Positions 9,401 to 52,166 of a stretch of DNA of 64,000 nucleotides are shown here, in pieces. The DNA is from Sphyrna mokarran (Eukaryota), in contig JAGIQG010000014.1 of NCBI GenBank assembly GCA_024679065.1, positions 28,086,001 to 28,150,000 of the forward strand, read 5' to 3'. Numbering within the stretch: position 1 is the first letter of the stretch; each line of letters opens with the position of its first letter. The notes under the pieces were generated by a model that saw only the letters and a list, made by a program, of their open reading frames with translations, had not been told where the DNA came from and did no database searches. The position numbers were made by a program, and so were the translations under genes.

Positions 9401-12400
9401 TGATATTGCAAAGAAAGTTCCTGTTCTTTGCTTCTATTTCCCCTATTTTAGATACCAGAAAAGCTCACTCATAGCCTGATGACTCCAATTCTGTTGGCTT
9501 TCCGTGTTTCAGTTTTAATCTGCTTCATTGCAATCACCATACTCCTGTGCCGATGGAAATGTGAGTGCCACCATTTAATAATCTGCTTTAATTTTCAAAA
9601 CAACTTTTTTTATGTACAATGGTTTGACTCTGAAATCAAGATGCTTTACTGCATCAGGTAACTGCAGGTAAGGTGTGATATGTCAACTCTTACTGGCACA
9701 GCCTGCTTTGGAAACAAGAAGAGAAAATGTTGGAAAAACTCAGCAGGTCTGACAGCATCTGTGGGAAGAGAATAGGATCAACGTTTTGAGTCTGGATGAC
9801 CTTTCATCAGAACTAAAGACAAAGAAATTAGGACATGATTTATACTATGGCAATGGCGGATCCATAATTACTTATTTATTCTTTTCATCTTATCCATCTA
9901 TTTTCATTACTTCATATTGTTTTTTGACTTTACAACTTTTGAATCTTGTCTTTGTACCACCACCCCTCCTCCCCAGCTAACTGCTATGTACCTCAGTTTG
10001 TCCCCTGGCAACCTCTACATTTATTCTGCCATTTACACACTTTGATCTCTTGATAGACAGTCAGCCTTTATCACCACCATTTACATTCTCTTTGTTCAAT
10101 TACATTCCAATTTCCAATTAGTAATGGTGCCATTAGGGACCGAAGAATTTACCTCTAATCCACCCACACCATACCCACAACCTCAATGCCCAGACCAATC
10201 ACCCCTCCCATTCGTACTAATGCATAGTAACAAAGGGACCTCCCTCATCCCACCGAGCACCCCCCTGTAAATCCTGCCCCCTTTGCTATGGTGCAGAAGG
10301 AAGCTGTTTGAGCATTGCGCCTGTACCATTTGCCAAATGAACATCATGGCTCAATGCTGTTCCTGTCTTTTCCCCGTCCCCCTTCATACTTCTTCTGTTT
10401 GAGTCATCATCTAACATCGTCTTGAATGCTTCAATTGAACTTGCACCAGCGCACTTCTAGGCAGTGCATTCCAGACTCAATCCACCCGTGTGGAAATTAT
10501 ACATTATACAGACTCTTAAACAGAGATCTATCATTTGGGTAAGTAGTTTCCTCAATCTACTGCATTTTTACTCTTCTTATAGAGAATGTCATCTTGGAAA
10601 TAAAATAGGATTATTTGAAATAAAAACAGATAATGCTGGAGAAACTCAGCAGGTCTGGCAGCACTTGTGTAGAGAGAAACAGAGTTGATGTTTTGACTCC
10701 ATGGCCATTGTGCTGCTGGAGCAGCACATCGGGCTGGCAGGTATCAGCGGAGGCCATTTCGCGGACTTCCCGCTGGGAGCCACGGAAAATCTGGTAAGTC
10801 TCCCAGATTTTCCAACACGATCAGCTCCTTGCTGGAAATCAGTGCGGAGCTGATTACAATATGGAAATCAGCATTTCCATTCCATCAGCGGGCCAGGGAC
10901 TGAAGTCTCCAGCCCTCCTAGCATTTTCACCTCCACCCCGCCACAGTTCTTTACTCCTGCTGCCCACTAACGGGGAACAGATGCTCCAGTCTCATTTGAG
11001 GGAAGAGAAACCATTGAGGCCCCCCAGGAGATTAGAGGTTAGGGGTATGAACAAAGAACAAAACAGCACAGGAAACAGGCCCTTCGGCCCAACGAGCTCG
11101 TGCCACCACCTCGACGTTCCCATTTCCACCCTTGATCCCTATCTATGTTTATAGAAATCTGAATTGGTATAGAAATCTGCATTGGAACCAAATTTGCAAG
11201 ACAATTTAGGGAGAATTTGTTTTGCCAATCAGCCTAAGAGCACATTTTTGGAATGTGGGAGGAAACCGGAGCACCTGGAGAAAACCCATGCAAGCACGGG
11301 GAGAATGCGCAAACTCCCACAGACACAGGCCCAAATCCATGTATCTGCACAGTGCAGCGATAGTCACTGAGCTGTCGTATGCCTTTTGAGTGGTGTCAGA
11401 TGGTATCCTGAGACTGTCCAAGGGGCAAACAGGCACTGCCCAAGGGCTAACAAGCAATGTCCAAGGGGCAACTTGGCACTGCCGCCAGGCATTGGGCAGT
11501 GTCAAGGGGATGGGTCAGAGGGGGCAGAGTCTGTTGGGAGGATGATCGGGATGGGGGAGGTCCCTCTGCTACTATGCATTAGTACGAGTGGGAGGAGATG
11601 ATCGGGCTGAGCATTCGGGTTGGGGATATGGGGTGGATGGGTTAGAGGTAAATTCTTCGGTCTCTAATGCCAGCATTAACAATCCCTTTGTCTCATGTCC
11701 ATGACATTTTTGCCAGCTAGCAGAACTATACAACTGCATAACACCCAGCATTCAAAATGAATCTAAAACACATCCAAACTTAATTCAGAAAGTTAAATTG
11801 TCTAAGACAAGTACGAAAAGATCAACACTCCAACAATATAGAAGACAAAACTGAATAACAGAAAACAAAAGTGGGGAATCAGGGTAATATATTAGTGTGG
11901 ATAGGGGATTGGTTATTTGTTGATAAGACACTTTTATTTGTTAAACTGTTAAATCTCATGTACAACAAACTTTGAACTTGATTAAAACCAAATTGAAGCA
12001 AGTTTTCACTTACAAATATCTCTGAATCTGGCTGGACCATGCTTTGATATTTAATTCCCATATTTTACAAGTTAAGATTACTGTTTTACTCATGTTAATT
12101 GATGTACCATAGTTCAGTAGTTCAGATTCTGTCCAGCTCATTTTTAACTAAGGTGATCTAAGTCTTTGGTTGTAATTCATTTCAGTTTGAGGCTGTTAAT
12201 GACTGGAATGTGGTACAATTAAAGCTGAAGCTGTATAACTTTATTACCATGGATAATTTCATTGAAAAGTTAAAGCTCTATCACCTGGCAGTTTTATTTG
12301 TTAAAGTGTTAACTCTCCATGGCTAATTTTGTATTTTATTGTTTTTAGTGTTTTAATAAATTGCATTGTGCAATTTATGCCGATGTGGCATTAGCGTCTT

Positions 12401-14941
12401 GGACAGGCCATTGTTGTAAATGATGTAGAGATGCCAGCGTTGAGCTGGGGTAAGCACAGTAAGAAGTCTCACAGCACCATAATAAAGTGCAACAGGTTTA
12501 TTTGGATATCATGAGCTTTTGGAACACTTCTCCTTCATCAGGTTAGTGGAGAGGTACGTTCCACAAACATGGCATATATAGACAAAGACTTCATTGCAAA
12601 ATAATGGTTGGAATGCAAATCTTTACAGGTTATCAAGTCTTTACAGGTATAGACAGTGCAAGTGGAAAGAGGTTTAATCAGAGGTTAAAGAGCTGTGAAT
12701 TGTCTCAAGTCAGGACAGTTTGTAGGATTTTAGGTTTTTTCAGTGATTCTTCGCTGTGAATCCAAAGGAATCATATCTTCGCCTTCAACAACCAGTTCTT
12801 CATCCAGACACATGGAACAGCCAAGGAGATCAAATTCATACCTCACATGCTAACATCTTCATGCACAAGTTCGAACAAGACCTCTTCACTGCACAGGACC
12901 TTAAATCTATGCTATGCAGTAAATACATCGATAACATTTTCTTCCTTTGAATTCACGTGAAAAATCACTAAAACAAATACATGATGACATCAACAAGTTC
13001 CATCCCACCATCAGATTCACCATGGACTATTCTCCAGAATCAGTTGCATTTTTGGAGACACGAATCTCCATCAAGGATAGTCACCTCAACACTTCACTTA
13101 TCACAAGCCCATGGATAATCTCATGATGCTCCACTTCTCCAGCTTCCCCCCTAAACACATGAAAGAAGCCATCCCCTATAGACAAGCTTTCCACATACAC
13201 AGGATCTGCTGAGATAAGGGGCAACTCAACAGACACCTATAGTTGCTGAAAGATGGCCTCGTAAGAGCAGGATATGGTGCGCCACTCATTGATTGACAGT
13301 TGCGCCGCACCACAGCGAAAAACTGCACCAATCTCCTCAGAGGACAAACACAGGACATGACCGACAGAGTGCCCTTAGTTGTCCAGTACTTACCCAGAGC
13401 GGAGAAGCTATGACATCTACTTCAACGTGTCATTGATGAAGATGAACATCTTGCCAGGTCCATCTCTATGCCCCACTAGCCATCAAACAACTGCGCAAAC
13501 TCAAACAGACCATTGTTCACAGCAAACTATCCAGCCTTCAGAAGAACAGCGACCACAATACCCACAACCCTGCCACAGCAACCTCTGCAAGATGTGCCGG
13601 ATCATCGACACGGATACCACTTCATACATGAGAACACCATCCATCAGGTACATGGTTCATACTCGTGCGAATCGGCTAATGTTATCTATGTCATGCAATG
13701 CAGGAAAGAATGTGCTGAGACATGGTTCAATGGCGAGACCATGCAGATGCTACGACAATGGATGAATGGAGACTGCTTGACAATCACCAGGCAAGAGTGT
13801 TCTTTTCCTGTCAGGGAGCAGTTCAGCAATCAAAGGTATTCAGCTCTGATCTTTGGGTAAGCGTTCTCCAAAACAGCCTTCAAGACACAAAACAACACAG
13901 AATCGCCGGGCAGAAACTGGTAGCCACGTTCCGCACACATGAGGATGACTTCAACCAGGATCTTGGGTTCATGTTACATTACGTGTAATCCCCATCATTT
14001 GACATTGGGCTTGCAAAATCCTACTAATTATTCTGGCTTGAGACAATTCACAGCTCTTTAACCTGTGATTAAACCTCTCTCCACTCGCATTGTCTGCACC
14101 TGTAAAGACTTGATTACTTGTAAAGACTTGCATTCCAATCAGTATCTTGCAATGGAGTCTTTGTCTATATATTTGAAACCTATCTCTCCATCACCTGATG
14201 AAGGAGCAGTGCTCCAAAAGCTTGTGATACCAAATAATCCCGTTGAACATTAACCTGGCGTTGTGAGCCGTCTTATTATTGTTAATGAGGAAATGGCTCT
14301 CATTTCACTCATTTGGCTAAATGAAGATTAAATAAAATTCAAGTCCAGGAAGGATATACAGACATGGAATCAGTAGAGCAAAAATTCACAAAATTAGTCT
14401 CTGGGATGGGAGGGTTATCTTCTGATAAGGTGAGTGAACTGGAGTTAGAATAATGAGAGATTGGATAAGTACAAGATTCTGAAGGGGTTTGATAGGGTAG
14501 ACACAGAGAAATTGTTCCTGTTGGTTGGAGAATCTAAAACATGTTGGGGGGGGGGGCGTTGTCGATTGTGGAATGGGACAGAATACGATGGGCAGAACCT
14601 CAGGATAAAGAATGATTGTTTAAGACTGGGGTGAGGTACAATTTCTTCACTTGAGAGGTTGTGAATCTTTGGAATCCTCTACTCTAGAGAGTTGTGATTG
14701 CTCTCTGTATCATATTTAAGGCTGAGTTAGAGATTTTTGAGAATCCATATCGTCCACTTCTACTTGTATGTAATGTGCTTCTTGCTCTTCTGTATGTTCA
14801 ATTCACACAAACATAAATATATTTCCAAGTCCTGTTTTACTTATCTCTATCATATTGTGATGTTCAACCAGTGATTGAGTTGTTTAAAATTCATGTTTCT
14901 GGTTTTTAGGTAACTATCCAGCAAAGGAAATATTATCATGA
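1553..14941 (+). CDS. TIM-family receptor paralog A, 3' part (spliced: 1553-1594, 3577-3638, 9452-9560, 14910-14941); signal and IgV exons not in the window
   Basis: Four AG/GT-bounded exons join in frame (phases 1/1, 1/0, 0/1, 1/stop): xPSTITIPPITTEH-GNKTPTYTNSPTKENSTPHST-IPEKLTHSLMTPILLAFRVSVLICFIAITILLCRWK-CNYPAKEILS*. Each exon and its flanking intron is homologous to paralog B. Confidence 0.8.
1743..2989. mobile_element. Solo LTR-like insertion (TG...CA) with a nested V-SINE at ~1925-2240
   Basis: Begins TGTTATGACC and ends ATTCTAACA; flanks ATAT/ATTT. Absent from the paralogous intron of gene B near 33000. Confidence 0.55.
1925..2240 (-). mobile_element. HE1-like V-SINE (tRNA head, V domain, CR1-type tail)
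   Basis: The + strand shows the reverse-complemented tail (CATAGAATCCCTGCAGTGC...GGCCATTT), the V-domain and the head (CAGCAGTGCTACC...GCCACCATGCTGC). Confidence 0.8.
3577..3638 (+). CDS. TIM paralog A second mucin-stalk exon (62 nt)
   Basis: gcttttcag|GTAACAAG...TTCAACT|gtgagc; encodes GNKTPTYTNSPTKENSTPHST; paralogous to 33967-34046. Confidence 0.8.
3859..4611. mobile_element. Possible solo LTR
   Basis: TGTAAT...GTGACA ends and composition like the other LTR-like inserts; no clear TSD. Confidence 0.35.
6343..7246. mobile_element. Non-autonomous TIR element (MITE-like) with C-rich interior
   Basis: Ends GAGGTGAAATCTTACC...TAATATCATCCCC resemble the other GGGNNNGATTYT-ended elements; poly-C tract at ~6466-6496. 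Confidence 0.5.
7561..7707. other. Assembly gap (147 N)
   Basis: Run of N. Confidence 1.
8390..8750 (+). mobile_element. DeuSINE (SacSINE1-like)
   Basis: tRNA-like head, Deu-domain motif TTCACTAATGTTCTTTAGGGAAGGAAATCTGC...GGTCTGGCC, and tail GGATGGACAATAAATGCTG...AATAAAAAA. Confidence 0.8.
9452..9560 (+). CDS. TIM paralog A transmembrane exon (109 nt)
   Basis: cctattttag|ATACCAGAA...TGGAAAT|gtgagt; hydrophobic stretch ILLAFRVSVLICFIAITILLC followed by RWK. Confidence 0.85.
9712..9815 (-). mobile_element. Penelope-type terminal fragment with decayed hammerhead core
   Basis: The reverse complement reads GTT-CTGATGA-AAGGTCATCCAGACTC-AAAACGTT; related fragments at ~10617-10705 and ~61190-61265. 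Confidence 0.55.
11050..11378 (-). mobile_element. 5'-truncated copy of the CR1/V-SINE chimeric element, inside a GC-rich MITE-like element (~10710-11650)
   Basis: (TTTGTTC)n-type tail, V-domain and degenerate head shared with the copies at 20.7, 23.1 and 51.2 kb; GTATG duplicated at 11045-11049 and 11377-11381. Confidence 0.8.
12424..14274 (+). mobile_element. Penelope-like retroelement (RT + GIY-YIG endonuclease, decayed) with inverted pLTRs
   Basis: RT motifs ANIFMHKFEQ and KYIDNIF; GIY-YIG SCESANVIYVMQC...NGET...LRQWM. 12424-12730 is the inverted copy of ~14015-14274. Imperfect 14-bp TSD at 12410-12423 / 14275-14288. Confidence 0.9.
14191..14227 (+). ncRNA. Minimal type I hammerhead ribozyme motif (mutated; inverted twin at ~12509-12545)
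   Basis: TCAC-CTGATGA-AGGAGC AGT GCTCC-AAAA-GC-TT-GTGA: stems I and II are intact, but the G of GAAA is lost. Confidence 0.65.
14340..14740 (+). mobile_element. Old CR1 LINE 3' remnant (paralogous copy at ~37125-37690)
   Basis: Decayed ORF2 C-terminal motifs (AATTTCTTCACT...GTTGTGAATCTTTGGAATC). Confidence 0.7.
14910..14941 (+). CDS. TIM paralog A terminal coding exon
   Basis: ttctggtttttag|GTAACTATCCAGCAAAGGAAATATTATCATGA. In the phase-1 frame the stop is conserved with paralog B, and a 1-nt indel follows the stop. Confidence 0.7.
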
Positions 14942-16204
14942 GAGAAACACTTACTTTGTTCTAAAAGGATTGGGACTTTTGCCTGTGTAAGGCTATGCAC
15001 ACTAATCCTGCAAAAACCAAACTATGTGATGTCATTTCCTCAGTCTTCTGCGATTTTTCTGCAATCCAGACCCATCTTTGACCTGTTTGAACCACAGCAT
15101 CATCAAGTCCAGGAAAATATGCTGTAATATTCCACAACCCGCAACAGCAGCAACTTAAAGTGCCATTGAAAAACACTGATCTGTGCACTTATAATGGACA
15201 TAGGAAAGGTCTTTGAAACTTTTAATGGAAGGTGTTTAACTTTACAGCTCCCAGTGTATTTTAAACTTGGTATATTGGCAAGACATTTCAGAAGTTCATT
15301 TTAATTGTAAATTCAATATGCACTATCCCATATGTTTTTAGTTTTTATTCATTCATTCAAATGGGCAAGATTCTCATGTTAGTGGGATTCTCCTGTGCTA
15401 TTGCAGTAAACAGAAACTTAACTGAGTGCCACATTTCCCATCCTCTCTGGCAGCGGCAGCGGGGACTGATCGGCCAGAGAATTCCAGCCAACTTGTTGTG
15501 AAATTGTAACATATATTAGTTAGTTTAAGAATTAAATCCTATTTTTTCTGAAAAAAGACATGTTGTTGAATTTTTTTTTATATAACCACACTTGTCAAGG
15601 ATAATTCTTCCAGTCCCATTGTTGGATTTACAGATATGTATGTCTGGGGTGACCTTGATGCCACGCAATGCTACCAGTCATTCGATCTGCATGTGAATAT
15701 TGGCCAAGTCATTCAGAATCCTGCAATATGTACGCACTGGATCAGCTAGGCGCATTTTCAAGGACTCAGTATCTTCAATGATAACATTGGAATAGTTTAG
15801 ATGAGAGGGTCATTAGATTGGTTCCACTGTCGGCGCAACATTGAGGGCCGAAGGGCCTGTACTGCACTGTAATTTCTATGTTATATGTTCTAAGAAGGCT
15901 AAATTATGGCAAGATAGCTGGGAGTTTGAACTCATAAAATACATCCTCTGGTTTGATGTGGGTTGAAGACACACCAAAACTTAAATCATGCTTTGTGGAT
16001 AGAAGAGAGAGACAAAACTGAACTCCTTTGTCCTCTCTTACCATCTGTCCATAAGCAGAGGTGATTTTTTTTTGTTTTAAAATAGGCCGCAACACTTATT
16101 CCAATAAACCTTGGTTTGTGTAGTGACTTTTAAAGTAACTTTCACATTTAGAATTAAATCAGAAGTTATTTATACATTTCTAACCCATGGGATTATAACA
16201 GCTT

Positions 16205-16250
16205 TACACACACACAGACACGTATAAACACACACACACACACACACACA
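16205..16250. repeat. (CA)n microsatellite within LTR-like sequence
   Basis: Interrupted ACACAC run. Confidence 0.85.
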
Positions 16251-17334
16251 GAGTAGGGGTAGAAGAGGGGCTTCACAACTATGAATAATCCACTGCCAAA
16301 AGAATCACAGAAGTAGATATCAGTTCTCTGGATTTCCAGAGTGCAGCATTTCAAAACCCAGAAGGGGTTCTCCTCATGGGAAGTTCCAGTTCATGTGTGT
16401 TCCAGGCTAAAGGCAGCAATGCAGAGTTATTTTAAGATGATGGCACTGCAGTGAGAAGATATTGATAGAAACTTGGTGTTGTTGGAAGATGGTGGTTTGT
16501 GGCTGTAGTAAAGTAGGCTTTCAGGAGGGCTTCTAGTAGGCTGCTTGGTCAATCTGGCATTCTGTCACTGGAGATTTGCAGGTTGGCAGTAAATCAACTA
16601 ACTGTCCTGCTTCTGAGTTCTCAACTAAAAATAAAGATTTAAAATGTTGCATGACCCTCTTCCTCCACAACAATTTCGTAAGAAATGTTTATTTGGTATC
16701 TGATTCTGCCTTTGTTTTATGGTTAATTATGTTCCAGTCATGAGTTTCTGATGACTGGAACATCTATATTGATGACCCTGTGTTGGGTAACTATTGTCCT
16801 GGTGGACCCTGAGACTCCAAGGGTTTGGTTGAGTTGAAGTGCTTCCGCAAGGCTGATAACTGCATAGCCTACTTCATTTTTGCAAAGGTATCTTTTTGTT
16901 CAAAGTAAAGGGGGAGTAGAGTCAAGCTAATTTATTCAAGCATGCATGCAAGGAAGAGTGCTTGAGCAGAGGCCAAACTTATATGTGGTCCTCAACTAAA
17001 TACTGACTGAAAGTAACAGTGAAAAAAGGAATAAGCAGCTGCCCCTATTGGTGAGTCATTGTGGCAGAGCTGTCAATATGAGGGTGATTTTGTAGTGACT
17101 GTTTGTAACCCAAAATAAAAATGCTACCATAAAGGCATTTGGTACCAGACCATGGAGAGTCCAACTGAAAACTGGATAACTAATCACTCTCGATATAGAC
17201 AGATTAAGCAAATGGTGGCAGATGGAGCATTATGAGGGAAAATGTGAAATTATACTCTTTGGTAATAAAGTAGAAAAACAGAATACTTGTTGAAAGGAAT
17301 TGAATGTATAAATATTAATATTCAGAGGGGCTTT

Positions 17335-17672
17335 GGTGGCCTAGTGGTATTATCTCTAGACTATTAATTCAGAAACTCAGCTCATGTTCTAGGGACGTAG
17401 GTTCAAATTCTGCCAGGCAGATGATGGAATTTGAATTCAATATAAAAATGTCTGAAATTAAGAATCTACTGATGACCATGGAACCATTGCCAATTGTCAG
17501 AAAAAGCCATCAGATTCACTAATGTCCTTTAGGGAAGGAAATCTGCCATCCTTACCTGGTCTGATCTACATGTGACTCCAAAGCCACAGCAATGTGGTTG
17601 ATTCTCAACTGCCCTCAAGCAATAAATGCTGGCCAATCAGCAATGCCAATGTCCCACAAATGAATAAAAAAA
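17335..17672 (+). mobile_element. DeuSINE (SacSINE1-like) inserted in an old CR1
   Basis: Same head, Deu domain and tail as 8390-8750. Confidence 0.8.
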
Positions 17673-18532
17673 TGATGTTCCCATTTAAGGAATGCAAACA
17701 TTTTTCATGCAGAGACAGCAAATAGAAGGCAAATTGCATGTCTTTATTGAGAACTGGAGTACAAAAATGAGGGAATTTTGCTATAGTTGTACAAGGCAAC
17801 CTGACAACTCTGCCACAATGAAGCACCAGTTGGGTCATGTGCTTGTTCCATTCCTCATTCTTACTTTCATGATCATTATTTAGTTGAGACTACACACAAG
17901 CTTGGCCTCTGCTCAAGGACTCTCCCTTGAATGAAGCTTGAATAAACCTGCTTGACTCTGTTGTCTCCAGAATCTGAAGAAAAATAAGGCTTTGCAAGAC
18001 TCTGCAGTCATTGACCTTGTGGATGCACTTAACTTCATGACACCTGGGTACAGTTATGTAGCTTTTGCCTGCATATATGAGAAATGACATACTTAGAGGT
18101 GTCATGGTGAAGGTTTGTCAAATTAGCTTCTTGAATGAAATATTTGTCCTGTGTTGGAGATTGAGTAAATGGGCCCTGCGATCTTTGGAGTTTAAAGAAG
18201 TGAAACATACAGGATCCTGAAGGGGCTTGTGGGACAGACACTGCGAGGTTGTTTTCCCTGTTGGGTAATCTAGGAGAAAGGGTCGATCATTTAGGACTGA
18301 AATGAGGAGAAATTTCCTCACTGAAAAAGGTTTGAACTCTTGGAATTCTCTATCCCAAAGGGTTATGGATGCTCCTTCATTGAATCTATTCAAGACTGTG
18401 ACAGACTTTTCTGTAAGTCAATGGATTTGGGCAGAAGATCAACCATGGTCATATCGAATGGTGGAGTAAGCTCAAGGAGCTGAATGGTAAACGCTACTCC
18501 TATTTCATATACTCTAATGCTCTTAAGTTCTC

Positions 18533-18882
18533 ATAGAATCCCTACAATGCAGAAGGAGGCCATTCGGCCTATCAAGTCTGCACTGACTGTCTGACAGATT
18601 ATCCTACCCATTCCCTATCCCTGTAACCCCATCTATTTACCCTGCTAATCTCCCTAATCCTACACATGTTAGGATACTAACGGGCAATTTGACATATTGG
18701 ACTATCAACATAATCCGCATATCTTTGGACTGTGGGAGGAAACAGGAGAACCCGGAAAAATTCCACATGGACTTGGGGAGAACATGCAAACTCCGCACAG
18801 ACAGTGATCCAAGTCTGGAATTGAACTTGAGTCTCTGTGGAGCTGTGATGCAGCAGTGCTAACCACTGTGCCACCATGCAGC
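18533..18882 (-). mobile_element. HE1-like V-SINE
   Basis: Head GCATGGTGGCACAGTGGTTAGCACTGCTGC, V-domain and tail on the minus strand; absent at the paralogous site near 40808. Confidence 0.85.
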
Positions 18883-19239
18883 TGTCTACACTGTTTCTTT
18901 TTGCCTTGGCTCCTTCTTCTTTTCTAATTAGAATTCTAATTCACAAGGGCCACAAATTGAGCATTTGCTTACTTACCTACTGTCCCCCCAACCTGCTGTT
19001 GTATTCTTTAATAAAAATTAATTTTTAAAAGGTTGCAGCCTTATTTCCAGGCATCAATCACATTACTTCCATTTAGTATGAGATTTGCAATGTAATAAAT
19101 GGACCTATACAAAATACGGTGTGGCCAGAATTGTAGAGTATTGGATAATGTAAGTTTCAGCTCAGTAACACAAGTTCAACATAACTGATCCCTTGGAGTT
19201 TTTCCTCTTAAACATGCAAAATGAAAATAAAGATGCATA

Positions 19240-19629
19240 CTTTTTACTAGAGTGTTATTCTTTCTCTTGAAAAGAATTTGGATCATGGGTTAATATTGTT
19301 CTTGTTGGAAAATGGTGGAAAAATCATTGGAGATACTGGTTGCAATTCTCTGGCGATTCACATCCAACTGCTGCTGCCAGTGAGAGCAGATAATTTGGCA
19401 CTCAACCAAATCTCTGTTCCTTGCAGTAGGGCCAGTGCTTCGCAGCTGTCACTGAGGTCAGAGAATTTAGCCCAATATATTCTTGCTAAACACATGCCTC
19501 AGTTCACAGAACTTGTTCATAGGAAGCCCTATCAGTGAAAAGTTTAACCCATCCATATCAGTACGGACCTAACATTAAGAACAAAAGCTCAACTCCAGCC
19601 ACAGAATTATACAACAGCTGTGCAGCATT
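19240..19629 (+). promoter_or_regulatory. Proximal promoter/5' UTR of TIM paralog B (paralogous to ~42540-42910)
   Basis: Non-repetitive block conserved between the two copies directly upstream of the ATG; no TSS evidence. Confidence 0.5.
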
Positions 19630-19681
19630 ATGTTTATTACCCGGATTGTTGTTCATTTGACTACACTACTTGTTCTTTTAG
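19630..19681 (+). CDS. TIM paralog B exon 1, signal peptide MFITRIVVHLTTLLVLL
   Basis: ATG, hydrophobic core, and a perfect phase-1 donor AG|GTAAGT. Confidence 0.85.
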
Positions 19682-22600
19682 GTAAGTTTCGGAATTTAAA
19701 AAGTGTGAATTTTCCTACAGATGTTTGATGTTCATATATAAAGTGTTCTGTGTGTAAGTGACCAACAAGATAAGGTCTTCAACAGGATAAGTACAGATTC
19801 ACCAAATGTGTTGTCTGAAGTGTTAAAGTGTTAGAGCTCGCTGCAGAAATAATGTCTGTATTCACTTGCATTTAGAAGGTCTATGGAGGAATTAATCAAG
19901 ATCTTTAAACTGAGAAAGAGATTTGAAAGGGTAGCTACAGAGAAAACATTTGCTTGGACACATAATCTTATATTACAGCTGGCCCATTTAAGAGTGAATT
20001 AGGAAAACCTATATCACACAGATGATAGTAGAAAAAGGAAAGTCTTTCCCAAAGGTTCTGGATTATGTATCAATTGAAATTTTCAAGATTAAAATTGATT
20101 ATTTTTTACTAGTGGTGCATCTGTGTAATATGTCTATGATTTCCATATGGGCTTGTATTTTAAAAAAAGCACCTTAACCATAGAGAATTTAGCACGGTGA
20201 CCTTCTTTTATATTTTGTGTACAGGAACATGGATGAATTCACGTCTGAGCTTGTCTCTGGGTAGTCACTTAAAATGCAAACTACCTTCCCAGGTACCACA
20301 TACTCCTTGCCATTTCAGGTAGAGAATTAAAAAAATGATATACTTGCAGGACTCATCAAGATGGAAAAGTAAATAAAGGTTTTGGAAACTATTCATTATT
20401 GGAGTAATACAGGCACATCAAACATCCTCCACTGTTGGACAATTGCTTAGCCAGCTAACCATTTGAGTATATAATGAAAACACAGATATTGTGGTGACAT
20501 GACAGAAACTGGCCTGTCATACAAAGCACCTTATTAGTCCACAAAGCGAGCAAATGGCAGACACGCTGAGATACCAAGGCGACACAGGCACTCACAGAGG
20601 AAGGATGATTCTTATCTAGAAATTCAGCACAGGACGTGAAGTGGGTCAGTTATTTTAGTTGCAGATGTTATATTCATTACGGGGGTTCAACCATAACGCC
20701 AAGTAAAGTGGTGGAGGCAGGTACACTGGAGTTATTTAAAAAATACTTAGATGGGCACATGAACAGAATGGGAATGGAGGGGTATAGAAAACTGATTTAA
20801 AATAGGGTTCATGAGCCTTGGGAGTCCCTGGGAAGTGTGTAAATAGATGATGATATTGATGTAGTTGTTTTTATCCTACAGGTGCTTTGGTCCACCTTGT
20901 TGTCTAACGAGGGGCATACACGCGATCGGTCATTGGAGGACTGCTCTTGGATCTTTTTCGTGAGTATCCTACTGCTTCACGTTGTTAGTGTACGCTTGAC
21001 CTGGACCTTCTGATGGGCAACACGACAGCTCAGTGACTATCGCTGTGCTGTGCTGATACATGGATTTGGGCCTGTGTCTGTGGGAGTTTGCATATTCTCC
21101 CCGTGCTTGCGTGGGTTTTCTCTGGGAGCTCCGGTTTCCTCCCACATCCCAAAGATGTGCTCTTAGGCTAATTGGCAAAAACAAATTCTCCCTAAATTGT
21201 CTCAAATTTGGTTTTTAATCCATAGATCTATAAACATGGACAGGGATCGCGGGTAGAGATGGGAACATCGGGGTGGCAGCGCAGGCTCATTGGGCCGAAG
21301 GGTCTGTTTCCCATGCTGTTTTGTTCTTTATTCTTTGTTCTTTGTTCAAGAGAAACCTACTGGTGAATGGAATAAGTTCAAAGCCAAAAACTACCAGAGT
21401 CAATTGTTTTCAGTGAATGAAAAATCCTCAAGCCCGAAACATTCCAGGAACTAATTCTGTTTTTTTTTTGTCTCTTTAAGAAGTCTAAGCACATGCTACC
21501 TCTTGTATTGTCATTTTTCTTATATATGTATGATTTTGTGTGAATGAGTGAGTGTGCGCTGTCCTGATTACTTTTCTAGTGTTGGGAAAGAAACACGTGA
21601 GGGGTAAATCTCACATTCCGCTGTGCTGGGCATCTGGTCCTGAGCGCATCTTCCGGCATCGGATTTCCGGCACCGGAAATAGGCCTGTGTCTGCCTTACA
21701 TATACAGTCTTTCGTTTGAATGTATTTAAATCTAATTAGTGGGCCTATGACTGAAGTCTCTGGTTCCGCTGGTATCTGCCCCTGCCAAGAATGGTTCACT
21801 TCAGCAGGGTCTACCAGCAGGGCGGCATTCAAAGCCCTCCAGAGGTCCAGACAGTGGTCAGGATGTGCTCCCTTGGTAGTGGCACCAGCGATTGGAAAGC
21901 CGGCATGTACCACTGCAAATCTCAATGCTGACAGATCAGTGCATGTGCAGTGGCACACTCAGCACTGTGCTGCTGCTCTCTGCAGTGGAACAGGCCACGC
22001 GCCCTGGTTTTTAACAGGATTCACGCTGGTGCACTCTGCAGTGCACAGACTGTTGGAAATTATTCTCCCATCACCTATGGAAAAAAGCAGCATGATATAC
22101 TCCAGTTTTCAACACTTTGGGTGGGATTTTAAGACCTCGCTTGAGCAAGAAAGGAAATTCTCACCTGAGAGCAACAGAGATTTCCATTGTTGGATCCTCA
22201 CCAATTCCATGGTGGGTGAGGTGGTGAAGTTCTGGCGTTAGAATTTTTTTGGGAGAATCCGCCCCCTGCTTCTTTCTTCAGTTTAATCCTATGAGAAAGC
22301 TTGACTTATGTCTGTTCTTGAAAGTTTCAGCACTCAAGTGTTAACACACTTCTCTGAAAACATATTGAGCCTGATTTTACCATTGCATAATGGGCATGAA
22401 AATGTAGTAAAGTCAGGCATGGGGCCATTAACGCAATTTGCTCCCATATCCACGCAGATGCCTACTTTACCATGGCCCGAAAATGGCCGCAATCCGATTT
22501 GCGCCCAAAATTAATGCAACAGCGATTTAAATGCATTTACATGCATTTAAATTGAATTAATGGGCTGCCCATCCAGCTTTACCAACATTTCCCCCGTACC

Positions 22601-25600
22601 ATCGTATTCATGAATCCAAATTCGGCACAAAATAAACCTGCTTGGCAAAAGCCTCTTTCGGGTGCTCCAGCTTATGAAAAGGTGGTGGGAGGGGGGAAGG
22701 GTGAGGTGGGGGTGCCAGATCGATGGTGGGAGGGGGGGGAAGGGTGAGATGGGGGGGGGAAGATCATCTTTGGTGTGGGGCGGGGGGGTGAGGCGGCGAG
22801 AGAAGGGAGGTCCTATCATTTTGGTTGGGTGGGGGCAGGTCAGCTGTATCTCGGGTGAGGAGGCGGGGGGAGAAGGCCAGATTGTTGTCTACTGGGTGGG
22901 GGGGGTGGGGGGGGAGGTTGATAACAGTCAACAGTCCAGACTGGACAACAGTCCAGATTGTTGTCTGTGGTGGGAGGTTGCAGGGAGACTGCTACCATCT
23001 GCGAGCAATTGGTGAGGGTGAAGGGGGGGATAGAGGGTCGCGAATGGTCTGAGAAGTGGGTGGATAAGGGGGGGGCAGTTACGTTGCGGGGGTGGGGTGA
23101 TGTCTATGGGGGCTATTGAACAAAGAGCAAAGAACAAAACAGCATGGGAAACAGGCCCTTCAGCCCAACGAGCCCGGGCCCCACCTCAATGTTCCCACAT
23201 CTACCCATGATCCTTGCCTATGTTTATAGATCTATGGATTAAAAACCAAATTTGAGACAATTTAGGGAGAATTTGTTTTGCCAGTTAGCCTAAGAGCACA
23301 TCTTTGGGATGTGGGAAAAAACCGGAGCACCCGGAGAAAACCCACGCAAGCAGGGGGAGAATGCGCAAACTCCCACAGACACAGGCCCAAATCCATGTAT
23401 CTGCACAGCACAGCGATAGTCACTGAGCTGTCGTGTTGCCCATCAAATGGTCCAGGTCAAGCGTACATTAACGACGTGAAGCACTAGGATACTCTCGAAA
23501 AAAAATCCAAGAGCAGCCCTCTCACGACCCATCGCGTGTATGCCCCTTGTTAGACAACAAGGTGGACCAAAGCACCTGTTGCTCCCACTTTTTCACTGCC
23601 AGGCCGCTTCATCCACTTTTTGTGGCCTGGGAGCGATGTGATAGGGGCATGTTTTTCAAATCTTTTTCCTCACTGCATATGTGCTGTTCAACGCTTCAAT
23701 TGGGGCTGCAATGCTTTGGCGCAATAAGCCCCACACACAGCCTGATTCAGACTGGCGATTTTTTTTCGAGCTAAGTGCCTATGTGAGCGTCTGAGAACAG
23801 ATTTCCAACTCGGATCTGAATTGCGCCCAGATTCAGCACGTAGAATCAAAATGGTAAAATTGGGCCCATCATATTGCCATTAGTGGACAGTTGGCAAGAA
23901 AAGAGTACCATCTTTTTCTTGTTTGTAATATTAGATAGGAATGTGGAAGGATATGGAGCTAAATGGAATAAATAGAATTGTGGCACTGATCAACTTCGAT
24001 CTAACTGAGTGGTGGAAGAGGCTCGGTTACTGAATATCTGACTCCTGTTTTTATTGATAAGTCATGATATTCCCGTCACGGCAGCTGGTTGGTAAGCTGT
24101 ATTCTCTGTACTGTGCTGTCTGTTCATTCTCTCTCACTGCAATGGACACTGAATTATTCCTGTCTTTATCTGGATTGTTTCGGGTTCAGTCCCCTCTGAA
24201 GTGCGAGGATTCCTGGGGCAGTCAGTCACATTGCCCTGCACATACTCTGTTACACAGCATGGTAAAACTGCAATGTGCTGGGGCAGGGGAGAGTGCCCCA
24301 AATCGGGTTGTTCACAAACAGTGGTTGTAACAAATGGGAAAACTGTAACTTACACATTCTCCTCAAAATATCACCTTGATGGTAAAATAGAGGAAGGGGA
24401 TGTATCTCTCACCGTGGATAATCTCAGTAAAGGAGACAGTGGCTGGTATTGCTGCCGTGTAGAGATATCCGGCCTTCTTAATGATCAGAAAGAGAATTTC
24501 AATCTGCTGGTTTTGAAGGGTAAGTCAGTTCAATATTATCCATTACCTGTATTTCTCCCATTTCAATACTGATTCTAGATTTATTGTTGATGTCTTGTTG
24601 AATATCGAGGGATGAAGCGGGGATGTCCCGCTCCCACTTGCATCCGCTCGGTTAAAATTGCGCCCTCGTCCGCGACAATACGGAAGGTTTAATGCACACA
24701 GACAACGAGCCTGTTACTTTTCCATAGAGAAGCGCTGTGTTAATTGGTGACAGTGGCAGAACATGGGCAGGAGAGATACTTCACAGCTAAAGATGAATGA
24801 ACTGTATCCCTGGGTATACACTGCATTCCCGCTGAATGTAGAACGGGATTTAAATATTTGGAAGCAGCAAATAACAATGTAACAATTATGACATATAGCT
24901 AAAAATATGCAGTACATGAATATTATGCTATAATATTTATTGTATATGATTATTTTTCGATGGGTGATTACTGAGTTCACTGGACAACTAAATGATTTCG
25001 TTCATTGTTTCATGTGAAGCTGTGAAGTAGTTCACCATAAAACAAAGATGCAGGGTTAGCCTTGCTCAGAAAGCCAACAGATACTTTGGTTTTATTTCCT
25101 TCCTGTTGGATGTTGCTCCGTATTTTAACTGGTTCCCCTGAAATTTTATATTATCCAGTTTTTCTTTCTGCCTGTAGTTTTACTTCATTTTTCTCAGTTG
25201 CTGCTGGCAATCGAATGATACCAAACACAGATGCAGATGGATATTTCTTTAGGGGATCTGGACGTGTGGAAACTTTGTGATGGAGAGAAACATGATATGA
25301 GTGAGGGGCGAATCAATGCAGCTCAATGGTTACAGTAACATTTTGTTTGACATTGCAGAGTCTGCACTTTCTCCTTCTCATGATATCTTTTACACAAGTG
25401 AGACTTCATGTTACTAAGTCTTTCCATGTCAAATATAGTGACAAATACACATTTGTTGTGGATTAGAGATATGAGGGTAGAACAGAAAGCTTTCATTGGG
25501 TAGCAGTAAGTAGAAATGCCTTAAGCAGAAATGCCACATGTAGTTCATTAAATCCCTACAGTTCAGAAGAGGGCATTCGGCTCACTGAATCTGCTCTGAC

Positions 25601-28600
25601 TCTCCGACAGAGAAACTTACCCAGCCCTCTCTCCTACTGTATTCCCATAAATCCACGCATTTCCCATGGCTAATCCATCCAACTCCCATATTTTGGGACA
25701 TTGCCAGGGAGGGGGGCAACTTACCACTGAATTTGACCTTTGGACTGTGGGAGGAAACTGGAGCATCCGGATGAAACTCACAGAGTCACAGGGAGAATGT
25801 GCAAACTCCACACAGTCTTCCAAGGCCGGAATTGAACATATCTCTAGAGCAGTGCTAACCACTGTGCCACAATACCATCCTACTCTGTCACTATGCTGCC
25901 CAGGTGATCAACAGAATAGCTCCATGATTTCCAGGAATAGAAAGGAAAAAATGCTCAAGAACTGCTCAGGTAGTGGCAAACCATAGAAGTAACATTCTAC
26001 ACATCCATTATAAAGACAGATATCTGAGCATCCAATGCTGTCTCTTCATCCTCAAAGGAATTTCACTTTGCTGATTTGGAACAATGAATGACTGTGTATA
26101 AAAATGCAGTATCTATGAACAGCGTTTCACAGAATTCTTATGGCACAGAAAAGAGCAATTCAATCCATGGTGTCTGCACAGGCTCTTCAAATAAGCAACT
26201 CACACAGTTCATCACCATTCCATCATCTTCTTCTCTTTCAGAGAAAGGTATAATCTCTTTTTGAATGCTTCAATTAAGCCTCCCTCCATCACACTCATAT
26301 GCAGTGCATTCTGACCTTAACCACTCACTTTTCTCCAAGTGAAATAGTCCCAGTTTCATCAATGTATTTTCATAACTGAAGTTCCTTATCACTGGAAAGA
26401 TTCTCATGAATGTTTTCTGCATCATCTCTAATGCTTTCACATCCTATCTAAAATATCAGTGCACAGGACAGGACACATGCTTTTCCTGAGGCTGAACCTC
26501 CTTGCTCTTGTACTTTATACCCCAATCAAAAAAGCCTAGTTTATTATATGATTGATTAACCACTCTCTTGACCTGTGTTGCCACTTCCAATGACTTATGT
26601 ATATATTGTCCACATCCCTTTCCCTTACAGTTGCATCCTTTATTTTATATTGGCTATGTCCTTCCTTTCAAAATGAATCACGTCACTTTTCTTTGCATTC
26701 AATTTTATCTGCCAACTGTCTATTCATTCCACCAACTTGTCTGTGTTTTTTAAGTTCTACACTATCTTCCTCACAGTTTACAATCTATAATCTACAATGT
26801 TGAAATTGTGCCCGGAATGCCTAAGAGAGACCTGCCTGCTAAATAGTATATTCAGGAAAAGCAAGGGTCCCCACACTAATCACTGAGGAATGCTGCTGAA
26901 ATCCTTCCTCCAGCATGGAAACAACCATTGACTAGCACTCTTTGTTTCTTGTTGCTTAGACAATCCGTATCCATGTTGCTAATGTTCTTTTCATTCAATG
27001 AGCTTGCAAGTCTTGTATAGCCAGTGATGCAGCATTTCACAACTTATGTCAGCGCTAGCAGGACCTAGCGTTCTCCAGGAAGTATCTCGATAGTCAGTGG
27101 AAGCAAAGGAAAAGACTGCATTGTTTAGTGTTGGTATCTCTTGACCAAGCCACCGCTATTGAAGGCTCAGTTACTCCCTAGCTCAGAGAATTGAGGTGTC
27201 GAATTGCAGCACTCCACAAGGGTTTGGAAGGGTCCAGAGCGATTGACTTTGTGAACTTTGCTGAATAGCCACAGTTTGTAAATTTTATTAGTCCACAGCA
27301 TTAACCTGGCTACCAGTTGGCACAAACTAGCAGTATATTGACAAATATTGTTCCATTTAGTGCTCTATATGTGGCATGGTAGCACAGTAGTTAGCACTGT
27401 TGTCTCACAGTGTCAGGAACCTGGATTCTATTCCAGCCTTGAGTGACTGTGTGGAGTTTACACATTCTCCCTGTGTCTGCATGGGCTCTGATTTTCTCTG
27501 ACTTATGTAGATTAGGGTCATTAATGGGATAATTATGATGAATTGCGGGATAAGACACTTGGTTGGTCTCTTTGGTGAGCTAGTGCTGACCTGGTGGGAT
27601 GAGTAGACTTCTGCAGTATGTAGGGATTCTGTGATTTTACTAAGCATAAAATTCTTGTGTACAGAAATTGCACCTGGCAAAAAACTCAAAACTAAAGATG
27701 TCCATGTTTTTATGTTTTATTATCTGCCTCATTTTAAATATTTTGCCCAAACAAAATTCAGTTCAGAGGCAAGCATCTTCCATTTAAAATAAAGAAGGAA
27801 TGAGAGTAAAGAACTTGATCTTCCTTACTTTTACACGTCTAACTAGCCATTTCAAGAGTATCTATTGTAAAGACTTGCAGGTGGATGTAACCTATAGACT
27901 GAATGACATAATATATGGGATTTAGTACTAAGTGAGTTTGACTATACTGGGATTCTCCTAAAAACTTCCTAAGTGTGGAATTCGCCTAACAACTGGAATA
28001 AATCCCGCTGATTTTTTTCAGTGGGGTTTTCAAAATGGATCTTCCACACTCTGTGCATCACAGAGTGCCTTAGTGTGAATCACACTGTAAAGTTGAGGAT
28101 AGGTGTATTCCTGCTGGTGAGGCTAGCAGTAGGCGCTGAGCGAGCCATTGCGCATGCACTGATCTGCCAGGCGCTGCCAGTGGTGCATGCGCAGTAGCTC
28201 GGAGTGGTGGCGTCCTGATGTCTTGCCAATCTCATGACCCCGCATCAATAAGAATTTGAAGAGTTGTCCTGGCCTTAAATTAGGACAAATTTTGTAAATA
28301 GATGAGTGGAGCCACTTGTGGTTAGCTGGCAGAAAGCTGGCTAAATGGACTTCATGCTCTTTGTAACAGCCAGTGATATATCTTAGGAAAAAGGATACAG
28401 CTTTCTTTGTTACTAAAAGAGTGGGTGGCTGTTTCTGCCAATTTAAAGTGGCAGTTTGGAGTTCTCACTTCTGATTGTCATTTACTGGGCAGTGTTCTCA
28501 CTCCTGATTGTAATTTACTGGGCAGTGTTCTCGCTCCTGATTGTAATTTACTGGATAGTGTTCTCATTCCTGATTGTTATTTACTGGGCAGTGTTCTCAC

Positions 28601-31600
28601 TCCTGATTGTAATTTACTGGATAGTGTTCTCACTCCTGATTGTTATTTACTGGGCAGTGTTCTCACTCCTGATTGTAATTTACTGGATAGTGTTCTCACT
28701 CCTGATTGTTATTTGCTGGATAGTGTTCTCACTCCTGATTGCCATTTACTGGGCAGTGTTCTCACTCCTGATTCTTATTTACTGGATAGTGTTCTCACTC
28801 CTGATTCTTATTTACTGGGCAGTGTTCTCACCCCTGTTTGTTATTTACTGGGTAGTGTTCTCACTCCTGATTGTAATTTACTGGATAGTGTTCTCATTCC
28901 TGATTGTTATTTGCTGGATAGTGTTCTCACTCCTGATTGTTATTTACTGGGTAGTTTCTCACTCCTGATTGTTATTTGCTGGATAGTGTTCTCACTCCTG
29001 ATTGTTATTTACTGGGTAGTGTTCTCACTCCTGATTGTTATTTACTGGATAGTGTTCTCATGCCTGATTGTAATTTACTGGGTATTGTTCTCACTCCTGA
29101 TTGTAATTTACTGGGTATTGTTCTCACTCCTGATTGTTATTTACTGGGTAATGTTCTCACTCCTGATTGTTATTTGCTGGATAGTGTTCTCACTCCAGAT
29201 TGTAATTTACCGGGTAGTATTCTGACTCCTAATTGTTATTTACTGGGTAGTTTCTCACTCCTGATTGTTATTTACTGGGTAGTTTCTCACTCCTGATTGT
29301 TATTTACTGGGCAGTGTTCTCACTCCTGATTGTAATTTACCGGGTAGTATTCTGACTCCTAATTGTTATTTACTGGGTAGTGTTCTCACTCCTGATTGTT
29401 ATTTACTGGGTAGTTTCTCACTCCTGATTGTTATTTACTGGGTAGTGTTCTCACTCCTGATTGTTATTTACTGGGTAGTTTCTCACTCCTGATTGTTATT
29501 TGCTGGATAGTGTTCTCACTCCTGATTGTCATTTACTGTGCAGTGTTCTCACTCCTGATTCTTATTTACTAGATAGTGTTCTCACTCCTGATTCTTATTT
29601 ACTGGGCAGTGTTCTCACCCCTGTTTGTTATTTACTGGGTAGTGTTCTCACTCCTGATTGTCATTTACTGGGTAGTGTTCTCACTCCTGATTGTTATTTA
29701 CTGGGTAGTTTCTCACTCCTGATTGTTATTTACTGGATAGTGTTCTCACTCCTGATTGTAATTTACTGGGTAGTGTTCTCACTCCTGATTGTTATTTACT
29801 GGGCAGTGTTCTCACTCCTGATTGTCATTTACTGGGTAGTGTTCTCACTCCTGATTGTTATTTGCTGGATAGTGTTCTCACTCCTGATTGTCATTTATTG
29901 GGCAGTGTTCTCACTCCTGATTGTCATTTACTGGGTAGTGTTCTCACTCCTGATTGTTATTTGCTGGATAGTGTTCTCACTCCTGATTGTCATTTACTGG
30001 GTAGTGTTCTCACTCCTGATTGTTATTTGCTGGATAGTGTTCTCACTCCTGATTGTCATTTATTGGGCAGTGTTCTCACTCCTGATTGTCATTTACTGGG
30101 TAGTTTCTCACTCCTGATTGTTATTTACTGGGTAGTTTCTCACTCCTGATTGTTATTTACTGGGTAGTTTCTCACTCCTGATTGTTATTTGCTGGATAGT
30201 GTTCTCACTCCTGATTGTCATTTACTGGGCAGTGTTCTCACTCCTGATTGTTATTTACTGGGTAGTGTTCTCACTCCTGATTGTTATTTACTGGATAGTG
30301 TTCTCATGCCTGATTAGTATTTACTGGATAGTGTTCTCACTCCTGATTGTAATTTACTGGGTATTGTTCTCACTCCTGATTGTTATTTACTGGGTATTGT
30401 TCTCACTCCTGATTGTTATTTACTGGGTAACGTTCTCACTCCTGATTGTTATTTACTGGATAGTGTTCTCACTCCTGATTGTAATTTACTGGGTAGTGTT
30501 CTCACTCCTGATTGTTATTTACTGGGCAGTGTTCTCACTCCTGATTGTCATTTACTGGGTAGTGTTCTCACTCCTGATTGTTATTTACTGGATAGCGTTC
30601 TCACTCCTGATTGTCATTTACTGGGTAGTGTTCTCACTCCTGATTGTCATTTGCTGGATAGTGTTCTCACTCCTGATTGTCATTTACTGAGTAGTGTTCT
30701 CACTCCTGATTGTCATTTACTGAGTAGTGTTCTCACTCCTGATTGTTATTTACTGGGCAGTGTTCTCACTCCTGATTATCATTTACTGGGTAGTGTTCTC
30801 ACTCCTGATTGTCATTTGCTGGATAGTGTTCTCACTCCTGATTGTCATTTACTGAGTAGTGTTCTCACTCCTGATTGTCATTTACTGAGTAGTGTTCTCA
30901 CTCCTGATTGTCATTTACTGAGTAGTGTTCTCACTCCTGATTGTCATTTACTGGGCAGTGTTCTCACTCCTGATTGTCATTTACTGGGCAGTGTTCTCAC
31001 TCCTGATTGTCATTTACTGGGCAGTGTTCTCACTCCTGATTGTCATTTACTGGGCAGTGTTCTCACTCCTGATTGTCATTTACTGGGCAGTGTTCTCACT
31101 CCTGATTGTCTTTCCTGGGCAGTGTTCTCACTCCTGATTGTTATTTGCTGGGCAGTGTTCTCACTCCTGATTGTTATTTGCTGGGCAGTGTTTTCAGTGT
31201 GTTGTTCATTAGTGTCAGGATTCTCTGTTCCCGCTGCTGTCAATCAGATTTCCCACTGATGTCATCCCATGCTGCTACCGCTGATTGGACAATTCTGCTG
31301 GCATAAACTGTCTGAAACTGAAATCACGCAACTGTAGATATTGGTGAACAAATCTGGTACAGCGAAAGTAACTTTATATTTGCTGAGGAAAGCCAGTGGC
31401 TTTGAGCTGTTCTATATATTTCAGTGACTAAATTTTCAACTCAATTCTGACGTTGTTTCTTACAAACAGAAAATTGTCAGTTAGAAATGCTCCATTTATG
31501 AGAATGCATGTGAAATTTCACAACTCTATTCCATTTCATGGAAAAAGATGACCAAAAACGTTGACTATGAGGGTGATCAAGAAGAAAGAAAGAGGCAACT

Positions 31601-39246: not shown

Positions 39247-39865
39247 GCTGCCAAATAAACCTGTTGGACTTTAACCTGGTGTTGTGAGACTTCTTACTGT
39301 TCTTACCCCAGTCCAACACCAGCATCTCCACATCATGCCTGGGGGAAATTCCACTGCAGTGCCATATATTGAGACATACATGGTGTCATTAAAACTGACC
39401 TGAACTGAACCAGTTATTAAGTTCAGAAGTTCAGTGAGTATTGTTTCAGACAATGTCATTGCATCAATGAAGAGGCCGGCAATATGAAATGAGCACATGA
39501 ACACAGCATTGCTATTGATATGGAATTCCCATATCGTCTTCGCAAATGTGAAGGAATCCTTCACTGTTTATCTGGAAAACTTGTTCAAAACAAATGATAT
39601 CAATTCGTCCAACCATTTGGTCAATTTGCAGTTTGTGTAGAAATGGTCATAGATAAGATAGAGCAGAATGGGACATCACTTCCATTGCATTGGGAAGTCC
39701 ATACATAAGCAATGTAGTGAGCTGTGATGATAAATTCCATCATTCATCAACTCTGCTGTTTTTTCAGTTAACCTTTGAGCAAGGCTGCCTTGTCACGCTG
39801 AGCAGAGTTCCAATGGATATGAATTTGGGCCCATCATTAAGCATTTTGTACATTTTATTAATATT
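39247..39865 (-). mobile_element. Penelope-like RT remnant with adjacent pLTR end (39247-39336)
   Basis: The minus strand VKDSFTFAKTI...MCSFHIAGLF resembles PLE RT motif A; the pLTR end matches 12424-12510 and 14228-14274. Confidence 0.7.
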
Positions 39866-42168: not shown

Positions 42169-42196
42169 ACATACAGTTTACTAGAGTGTTAATCAT

Positions 42197-42505
42197 CATA
42201 GAAACCGTACAGTGCACAAAGAGATCATTTGGCCCATCGAGTCTGCACCAACCACAATCCCATCCAGACACAACACCCATATCGTACATATTTACTCACT
42301 AATCCCTCTAACTTATGCATCTCAGGTCACTAAGGGACAATGTTAGCATGGCCAATCAACCTAATCCACACACCTTTGGGCTGCGGGAGGAAACCAGAGC
42401 ACCCTGAAGAAACCTATATGGACACGAGGAGAATGTGCAAAGTCCACATAGACAGTGACCCAAGTCAGGAATTGAACCTAGGTCCCTGGAGCTGTGAAAC
42501 AGTGT
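42197..42505 (-). mobile_element. HE1-like V-SINE
   Basis: V-domain and tail on the minus strand; absent in the paralogous promoter of gene B. Confidence 0.8.
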
Positions 42506-52149: not shown

Positions 52150-52166
52150 TCATGACTCCCCAAATA

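Follow-up and report, generated by a model that had tools for sequence, protein, structure and literature searches.

Can a long interspersed element (LINE) take up a short interspersed element (SINE), its parasite, as part of its own 3' end? This question is raised by a repeat family in a stretch of DNA from Sphyrna mokarran (GenBank assembly GCA_024679065.1, contig JAGIQG010000014.1, positions 28,086,001 to 28,150,000 of the forward strand), which we call the window and analysed at its full length of 64,000 nucleotides (nt). The window has a GC content of 41% and is rich in fragments of CR1 LINEs and in SINEs with tRNA-like heads. A preliminary description of this DNA had proposed four copies of a CR1 family that carries an entire V-SINE inside its 3' untranslated region (UTR). 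All four copies (c1 to c4) were recovered by BLAST and alignment; they comprise one common 3' unit with four different 5' ends, while a search of the window for a fifth copy of the family's 133-nt domain or of its SINE-like head found none. The DNA evidence presented here consists of these four copies, and the evidence from outside the window of proteins only. Judged by its sequence, the family behaves as a CR1 LINE whose 3' UTR is long and composite, and it is not a V-SINE. Our preferred explanation, to which we assign a probability of about 0.6, is that a CR1 lineage captured the head and body of a V-SINE and keeps the SINE-derived part as functional RNA.

Anatomy of the four copies

In c1 and c2 the parts follow each other in the same order: the stop codon of open reading frame 2 (ORF2), a spacer ending in (Y)nCAG|G, the 133-nt domain, the head, the body, a variable linker and a tail with (TTTGTTC)n. 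Copy c1 (20691-21343, plus strand) starts with 8 nt, the last 33 codons of ORF2 and TAA (20691-20800, stop at 20798-20800). There follow a spacer of 81 nt (20801-20881), whose end resembles a 3' splice site, the 133-nt domain (20882-21014), a SINE-derived head (21015-21074) with a hairpin of 11 base pairs at 21025-21051, a conserved body (21075-21171) assigned by its likeness to the bodies of free SINEs, the linker (21172-21281), and the CR1-type tail with (TTTGTTC)n (21282-21343), assigned by tail comparison. We take the body to be the putative V domain and the free SINE copies of the window to be probably of the HE1 type. Copy c2 (51190-51906, minus strand) represents a second subfamily and is nested within an older CR1 ORF2. 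It comprises 78 ORF2 codons plus TAA (51905-51669, stop at 51671-51669), a spacer of only 21 nt (51668-51648), the domain (51647-51514), head (51513-51453), body (51452-51356), linker (51355-51253) and tail (51252-51190). The other two copies, both on the minus strand, are shorter: c3 (23119-23575) reaches from the domain to the tail, its first base being the G of CAG|G, and c4 (11050-11377) is truncated within the head. Each copy is 5' truncated at a different point, and none of the four begins at the first base of the SINE head. In addition, the variable linker of c4 contains an 18-bp tandem duplication (11150-11185), which the other copies lack.

The host CR1 of c2 breaks off in frame at GGSY and picks up at (Y)RMDV, and the codon of the shared tyrosine lies inside a duplication of TTATA (51185-51189 and 51907-51911). 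Because the host frame is broken and resumed across this duplicated codon, the target-site duplication (TSD) of c2 is firm, and since the element splits the host frame with TTATA duplicated, its ORF2 end and its SINE part came together. For the remaining copies TSDs are plausible, yet weaker. Copy c1 is flanked by GTTCAA (20685-20690), the second copy of which (21344-21349) overlaps the last tail unit, c3 by CAACAG and CAATAG, which match at five of six positions, and c4 by CATA. Such flanking words are expected by chance at rates of 0.6% (6 nt), 2.4% (5 nt) and 8% (4 nt). Empty sites were sought as well: an old duplicated block of the window (12160-20190 and 36816-43476, about 23 kb apart, 68-85% identical) stops short of both c1 and c3 and provided none, and an element related to the host of c3 is not collinear at the insertion site and provided none for c3. 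The latter two are GC-rich elements with inverted ends that resemble MITEs (miniature transposable elements of the inverted-repeat type), located at 22370-23870, where c3 is inserted, and at 53860-55280, where the inner part lies in the opposite orientation. Near c2 (51907-52170), its host CR1 (plus strand) ends at about 52165 and adjoins the tail of another CR1 (52170-53200, minus strand), so that the two tails face each other.

The ratio of observed to expected CpG is 0.53-0.56 in all four copies, while the window as a whole has 0.25 and five other repeats measured lie at 0.11-0.43. This retention of CpG and the nesting of copies within other elements fit a fairly young family. The earlier proposal that the unit moved as one piece holds, on the strength of c2, and the data are in keeping with the proposed comparatively young age.

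What became of the SINE part was assessed against six free SINE copies of the window. All of these carry a B-box-like word at the expected place, with zero to two mismatches, while in all four family copies a deletion of about 20 nt has removed the B box. An A-box-like word in the family head has two mismatches, and ARAGORN detected no tRNA in the window. The head hairpin differs from the free-SINE majority at 12 of 28 positions. Eight of these 12 changes form four double-sided pairs, all of them Watson-Crick (two G-C pairs turned into A-T, two mismatches repaired), while one pair was lost and one turned into a wobble; under random placement in a simulation, as many compensatory changes occur with P of about 0.003. 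They are common to all four copies and predate the subfamily split. This comparison rests on the free SINE of the window, and the true parent may have been another V-SINE. Further downstream, the body of c3 is 67-74% identical to that of each of the five free SINE copies tested. Taken at face value, the SINE part has lost its promoter and kept its structure. The preliminary description was consequently right to place a SINE-derived head and body in the 3' UTR, but not an entire V-SINE, as the B box is gone in every copy and a SINE-specific tail cannot be demonstrated. Likewise, the head, described as eroded with an unclear B box, is better called remodelled: the box is deleted outright, the hairpin was kept by compensatory changes and the head is 92-93% identical between the subfamilies.

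From the ORF2 stop to the tail motif we measured 491 nt in c1 and 426 nt in c2, compared to 37 and 43 nt in ordinary CR1 fragments of the window, and between stop and domain neither c1 nor c2 has a CR1 tail. Contrary to what had been assumed, stop and domain are not adjacent but separated by the spacers of 81 and 21 nt. The tail itself translates as (L)(I/V)GPKGLFP, as in the read-through relatives P0016, P0063 and P0258, and in P0016 and P0063, where the stop is read through, GPKGLF lies 19-20 codons past EGY. All four copies reach their best local tail score with a CR1 tail (34-39), while the ranges overlap (20-39 against three CR1 tails, 12-32 against three free SINE tails). Hence the tail is as likely to be the LINE's own as the SINE's, and the SINE-derived insert appears to sit within the 3' UTR, ahead of a CR1-type tail. 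The notion that the LINE adopted its parasite as its 3' end is therefore to be narrowed: SINE sequence does reside in the LINE, and the sequence flow reads as SINE to LINE, but the very end may be the LINE's own. We do not classify the family as a V-SINE because two defining features of such elements, an internal promoter of A and B boxes and a 5' end at the start of the head, were looked for and are absent.

One might argue that, with SINEs and CR1 fragments so dense in the window, an ordinary V-SINE was simply inserted twice, independently, behind CR1 stops. However, no inner TSD and no remainder of a CR1 UTR past the SINE is present, the order of modules and the B-box deletion are identical in all copies, and both ORF ends derive from related CR1 subfamilies. 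We consider the probability of this scenario to be negligible.

ORF2 ends and conservation of the modules

The 5' part of c1 is a CR1 ORF2 frame open over 33 codons and that of c2 one open over 78, each ending with TAA, and their C-terminus is homologous to other CR1 fragments of the window (tblastn). While no Pfam family covers the short ORF2 end, a profile built from it yielded 2316 matches, some of them named reverse transcriptase in a bird. All 33 amino acids of c1 are identical to P0157, including its C-terminus; P0157 is a 71-amino-acid product of another locus and extends further upstream. The ORF2 end of c2 is 83% identical to P0152 (136 amino acids), with which it shares the last residues EGYSRTV. 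Seven more proteins (P0001, P0010, P0153, P0154, P0155, P0158 and P0185) have similar ends with the stop at the same position. Over 29 codons, c1 and c2 differ at 27 sites, 15 of which are third positions; the proportion of synonymous differences (pS) is 0.63 and that of nonsynonymous differences (pN) 0.23 (Fisher p 0.0016). Since both ends recur in longer copies (P0157, P0152) and carry the mark of purifying selection, c1 and c2 are, as far as their sequences tell, members of two real subfamilies, in line with the persisting subfamilies suggested before. As pN is lower than pS, both lineages coded for a working ORF2 end long after their split.

These values also bear on the idea that the copies are non-autonomous, internally deleted CR1 derivatives, consisting of an ORF2 end and the composite UTR and moved in trans. 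Such derivatives of a CR1-group element exist according to the part of PMC6740152 consulted, and no copy in the window exceeds 717 nt. In contrast, a pN well below pS between c1 and c2 is at odds with it, as are the lengths of related frames, since the c2-type frame extends to 136 amino acids in P0152 and its near relative P0153 reaches 218. We regard this explanation as very improbable.

To place the ORF2 ends, a tree was obtained by a quick search from 96 rows and 81 columns, with 28 of 123 proteins dropped for lack of an anchor motif or for insufficient length. Copy c2 and related ends form a set of 10 rows without inner resolution, set off from 52 further rows (support 94). The tree is neutral on whether the c1-type and c2-type ends have a single origin. 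Furthermore, none of 267 proteins examined by tblastn reads into the domain or the head.

We measured divergence at sites where c1 and c3 agree and scored c2 as same or different. The head differs at 4 of 59 sites, the body at 6 of 90 and the tail at 3 of 49, whereas in the domain 25 of 121 sites differ and in the linker 36 of 89. By block, this gives 7% for head and body, 6% for the tail, 21% for the domain and 40% for the linker, and head and body are significantly more conserved than the linker (p 4e-10) and the domain (p 9e-4). A direct comparison of c1 and c2 led to a similar picture, with 15 of 157 sites different in head and body against 27 of 87 in the ORF2 end (p 4e-5). Since c1, c3 and c4 differ from one another by nearly as much as this level of roughly 7%, the master copies were nearly identical in head and body. 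Tails are essential for LINEs of the stringent type (PMC4176376, in the part consulted), and because head and body are conserved on par with the tail, and better than the ORF2 end, this pattern suggests that they matter too.

Alternatively, the match of head and body between the subfamilies might reflect recent recombination or gene conversion among abundant copies instead of selection, in which case the SINE would be a passenger or a hotspot of recombination. Only c2 stands for the second subfamily, and exchange of modules via conserved domains is a published hypothesis (PMC5804259, as far as the consulted text goes). Nevertheless, conserved blocks alternate with diverged ones, so that two separate conversion tracts would be needed, and the compensatory changes of the head hairpin are older than the split and present in all four copies. 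Thus, we hold this alternative to be improbable.

The 133-nt domain and its CAG|G boundary

The domain upstream of the head has no accepted match in Rfam: five matches up to E 10 were returned for 20600-23700, all far below the gathering scores. In c1 it is predicted to fold into a three-way junction with a long inner stem. Although 30 of 136 sites are different between the domains of c2 and c3, both are predicted to form the same junction, with a base-pair distance of 19 between the two folds compared to 73 for random mutants, none of 500 being as close. In the two outer helices 100% of cells are paired, and the changes there are one-sided only. Taken together, a conserved fold is likely, as judged from modelling. 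An origin from a ribozyme like that of hepatitis delta virus was rejected, since the first helix is not kept in c2, and 5S, 7SL and selenocysteine insertion sequence (SECIS) origins were weighed by eye and dropped. Searches elsewhere delivered no relatives: all six loci from a metagenome scan with the domain motif were chance matches, none of eight candidates in viral contigs was confirmed, and neither of two candidates from a protein search with the translated domain held up. Among the 20 sequencing runs listed (16 studies), three, under three organism labels, contained at least half of the words, 14 a fraction of 0.22-0.38 and three of 0.05-0.06; these values are not used as evidence. The domain of c2 also contains overlapping A-box-like and B-box-like words (51544-51563), with one and two mismatches, respectively, in c2 and two and three in c3. 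They are too close together for a promoter and probably due to chance.

Directly before the domain, an acceptor-like (Y)nCAG|G is present in c1 and in c2, with 11 and 12 pyrimidines out of 14, respectively, and is unspliced in both. This site gives rise to the main rival of our explanation: the part from CAG|G to the tail could be an element of its own, non-autonomous and fixed at its 5' end, that was processed from a longer transcript of polymerase II by splicing or cleavage, while c1 and c2 would be its parents or chimeras with CR1 3' ends. That c3 starts at the G of CAG|G would, by a rough estimate, occur by chance in a few percent of cases over four copies. Acceptor-like sites before the domain in both long copies point the same way, as only 33 are found in 127,938 positions of the window, a count that depends on a filter chosen after the sites had been seen. 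Moreover, the closing helix of the domain begins 7 nt past CAG|G, and the upstream spacers differ in length and sequence. However, c3 shares ACAG with its target, and truncation at this microhomology is enough to explain its 5' end, although the same start would be expected of a processed RNA whose 5' end is fixed. In addition, c3 has no upstream exon attached, as no copy among the four has one joined at CAG|G, the tracts of c1 and c2 may be one homologous feature (alignable from 20865), and no promoter is left within the unit. We consider a separate element unlikely, and it could coexist with the LINE. The preliminary description had named a fixed 5' end without preceding ORF2 as the mark of an independent SINE; such an end is seen in one of the four copies, c3, and lies at the 5' edge of the domain.

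Several observations weigh against capture and retention of the SINE part by a CR1 lineage. The link to ORF2 is present in only two of the four copies, one of which (c2) stands for the entire second subfamily, and its head and body may have undergone local gene conversion. The longest copy measures 717 nt and no full-length element is found among the four, while the related public proteins come without DNA context and their 3' UTRs are not readable from them. In the tree, the c1-type and c2-type ends fall within the group of 10 rows that lacks inner resolution (support 0 for one clade). The start of c3 falls exactly on the G of CAG|G, and between c1 and c2 the spacers are related in their last 15-19 nt only (58% over 19 columns). 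Finally, covariation in the domain is at the level of shuffled alignments, with one of 45 pairs changed on both sides and 278 of 500 shuffles as high; the test for pairs kept is borderline (P 0.045 in one direction, 0.14 in the other), and a better fold than in shuffles is seen for c3 alone (z -3.1, compared to -0.75 for c1 and -1.5 for c2).

Origin of the family and its relation to known elements

Despite these points we favor the capture of a V-SINE by CR1, for which the following course can be envisioned. In an ancestral CR1 master, about 400 nt would have been added after the ORF2 stop and ahead of the tail, namely a pyrimidine tract with CAG, the structured 133-nt domain and, from a tRNA-derived V-type SINE, head and body, presumably by insertion, recombination or a template switch via the shared tail. 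With the B box lost, the SINE part would be copied only within the LINE transcript. Reverse transcription from the CR1 tail would then leave 5'-truncated copies with short TSDs, as the anatomy of the copies indicates, and the lineage would have split into at least two subfamilies with ORF2 under selection, as seen over 29 codons. Head hairpin and body, being as conserved as the tail, may have a job at the RNA level, most likely in RNA stability, in assembly of the ribonucleoprotein or in presenting the tail to the ORF2 protein (ORF2p). A bolder version is put forward only tentatively and is, in our estimation, somewhat short of even odds: an autonomous CR1 clade with six or more subfamilies in cartilaginous fish would have domesticated a V-SINE whose promoter is gone and in which constraint on head hairpin and V domain exceeds that on the ORF2 protein because both act in cis on the LINE RNA, while processing at CAG|G would release a promoterless daughter element.

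Besides the repeats discussed so far, the window contains an immunoglobulin V-set exon at 24177-24521 (plus strand; Pfam E 1e-17), with a CW-x4-C pattern and followed by a GT donor; c1 lies upstream on the same strand. This pattern presumably recalls receptors of the TIM/CD300 type. No second copy of the exon was found. A tandem array of a 33-bp unit at 28461-31196 (83 copies, 91% matches) has a longest stop-free stretch of 313 codons on the plus strand and may represent a minisatellite or belong to a repeat exon. An assembly gap of 147 N is located at 7561-7707.

The family can be compared to several known elements, based on the consulted parts of the papers cited. One comparison is with the pair of HE1, a V-SINE, and HER1, a CR1 LINE, in sharks and rays (PMC3747384). 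Like HE1, the family combines a tRNA-derived head, a conserved body and a CR1-type tail. In contrast to HE1, the family has its head and body downstream of an ORF2 stop, with the B box deleted and the 133-nt domain in front of the head, and its tail, which finishes in (TTTGTTC)n, scores best against CR1 tails with ranges that overlap those of free SINE tails. The MITE MER6/MER6A, which along with Ingi-3_AC comes nearest to the present family, carries a headless V-SINE (PMC6887750), and here as there a V-SINE without transcription of its own rides in another transposable element. However, MER6 is a non-autonomous DNA element without an RNA stage, whereas the present carrier is a retrotransposon with the passenger in the copied RNA and with signs of selection. 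SINE-like pieces within LINEs are also found in Repbase, in Ingi-3_AC, for which LINE-SINE recombination has been suggested, R4-1_ADi (a Ceph-like segment in the 5' UTR) and RTE-1_DAn (tRNA-like) (PMC5786205). They share with our family the presence of SINE-related sequence in a LINE, but belong to other clades, with 5' UTR pieces of 45-70 nt and a Ceph half that is itself derived from RTE; the consulted text of that paper contains no mention of a CR1 3' UTR or a V domain (PMC5786205). In ZfL2-1 and ZfL2-2, with tails of the stringent type, a conserved 3' stem-loop and short repeats are recognised by ORF2p (PMC4176376). The family tail likewise is among its most conserved modules, yet while those assays define the tail only, about 290 nt more of conserved RNA lie upstream of it here. 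Finally, SVA_F1 gained MAST2 sequence by splicing (PMC3287187). It resembles the family in being a composite retroelement whose modules meet at a splice site or a position like one, but in the family the acceptor-like site is unspliced in both long copies and its use in splicing is putative.

As far as their consulted parts go, PMC5499810, PMC7245038 and PMC11481361 address exchange of modules among SINEs only. A 2026 survey of vertebrate CR1-group elements (PMC13343379) mentions no such UTR in its available text, and none of four motifs occurred in its supplementary file. Term and motif searches of the literature yielded no description of a CR1 with a V-SINE in its 3' UTR; Repbase and Dfam lie outside these searches, and the family may sit there as an unremarked consensus.

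Why central domains of SINEs such as V are conserved for so long is stated to be unknown in the consulted parts of two papers (PMC4824008, PMC5804259). The latter discounts one model on the ground that no such domains were found in LINE sequences (PMC5804259), and a 2016 paper, in its available part, states that they are absent from LINEs. Such conservation spans hundreds of millions of years, and the present case suggests that the SINE core does a job in RNA. A CR1 with the V domain in its own 3' UTR and with the polymerase III promoter deleted separates the role of the domain from SINE transcription and from exaptation by the host, and points to movement of sequence from SINE to LINE. As a consequence, counts of V domains in shark genomes may mix SINEs with the 3' ends of LINEs. 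If an autonomous CR1 clade has indeed domesticated a V-SINE, a highly conserved SINE domain would reside within a LINE and would provide a ready system to assay the function of the V domain.
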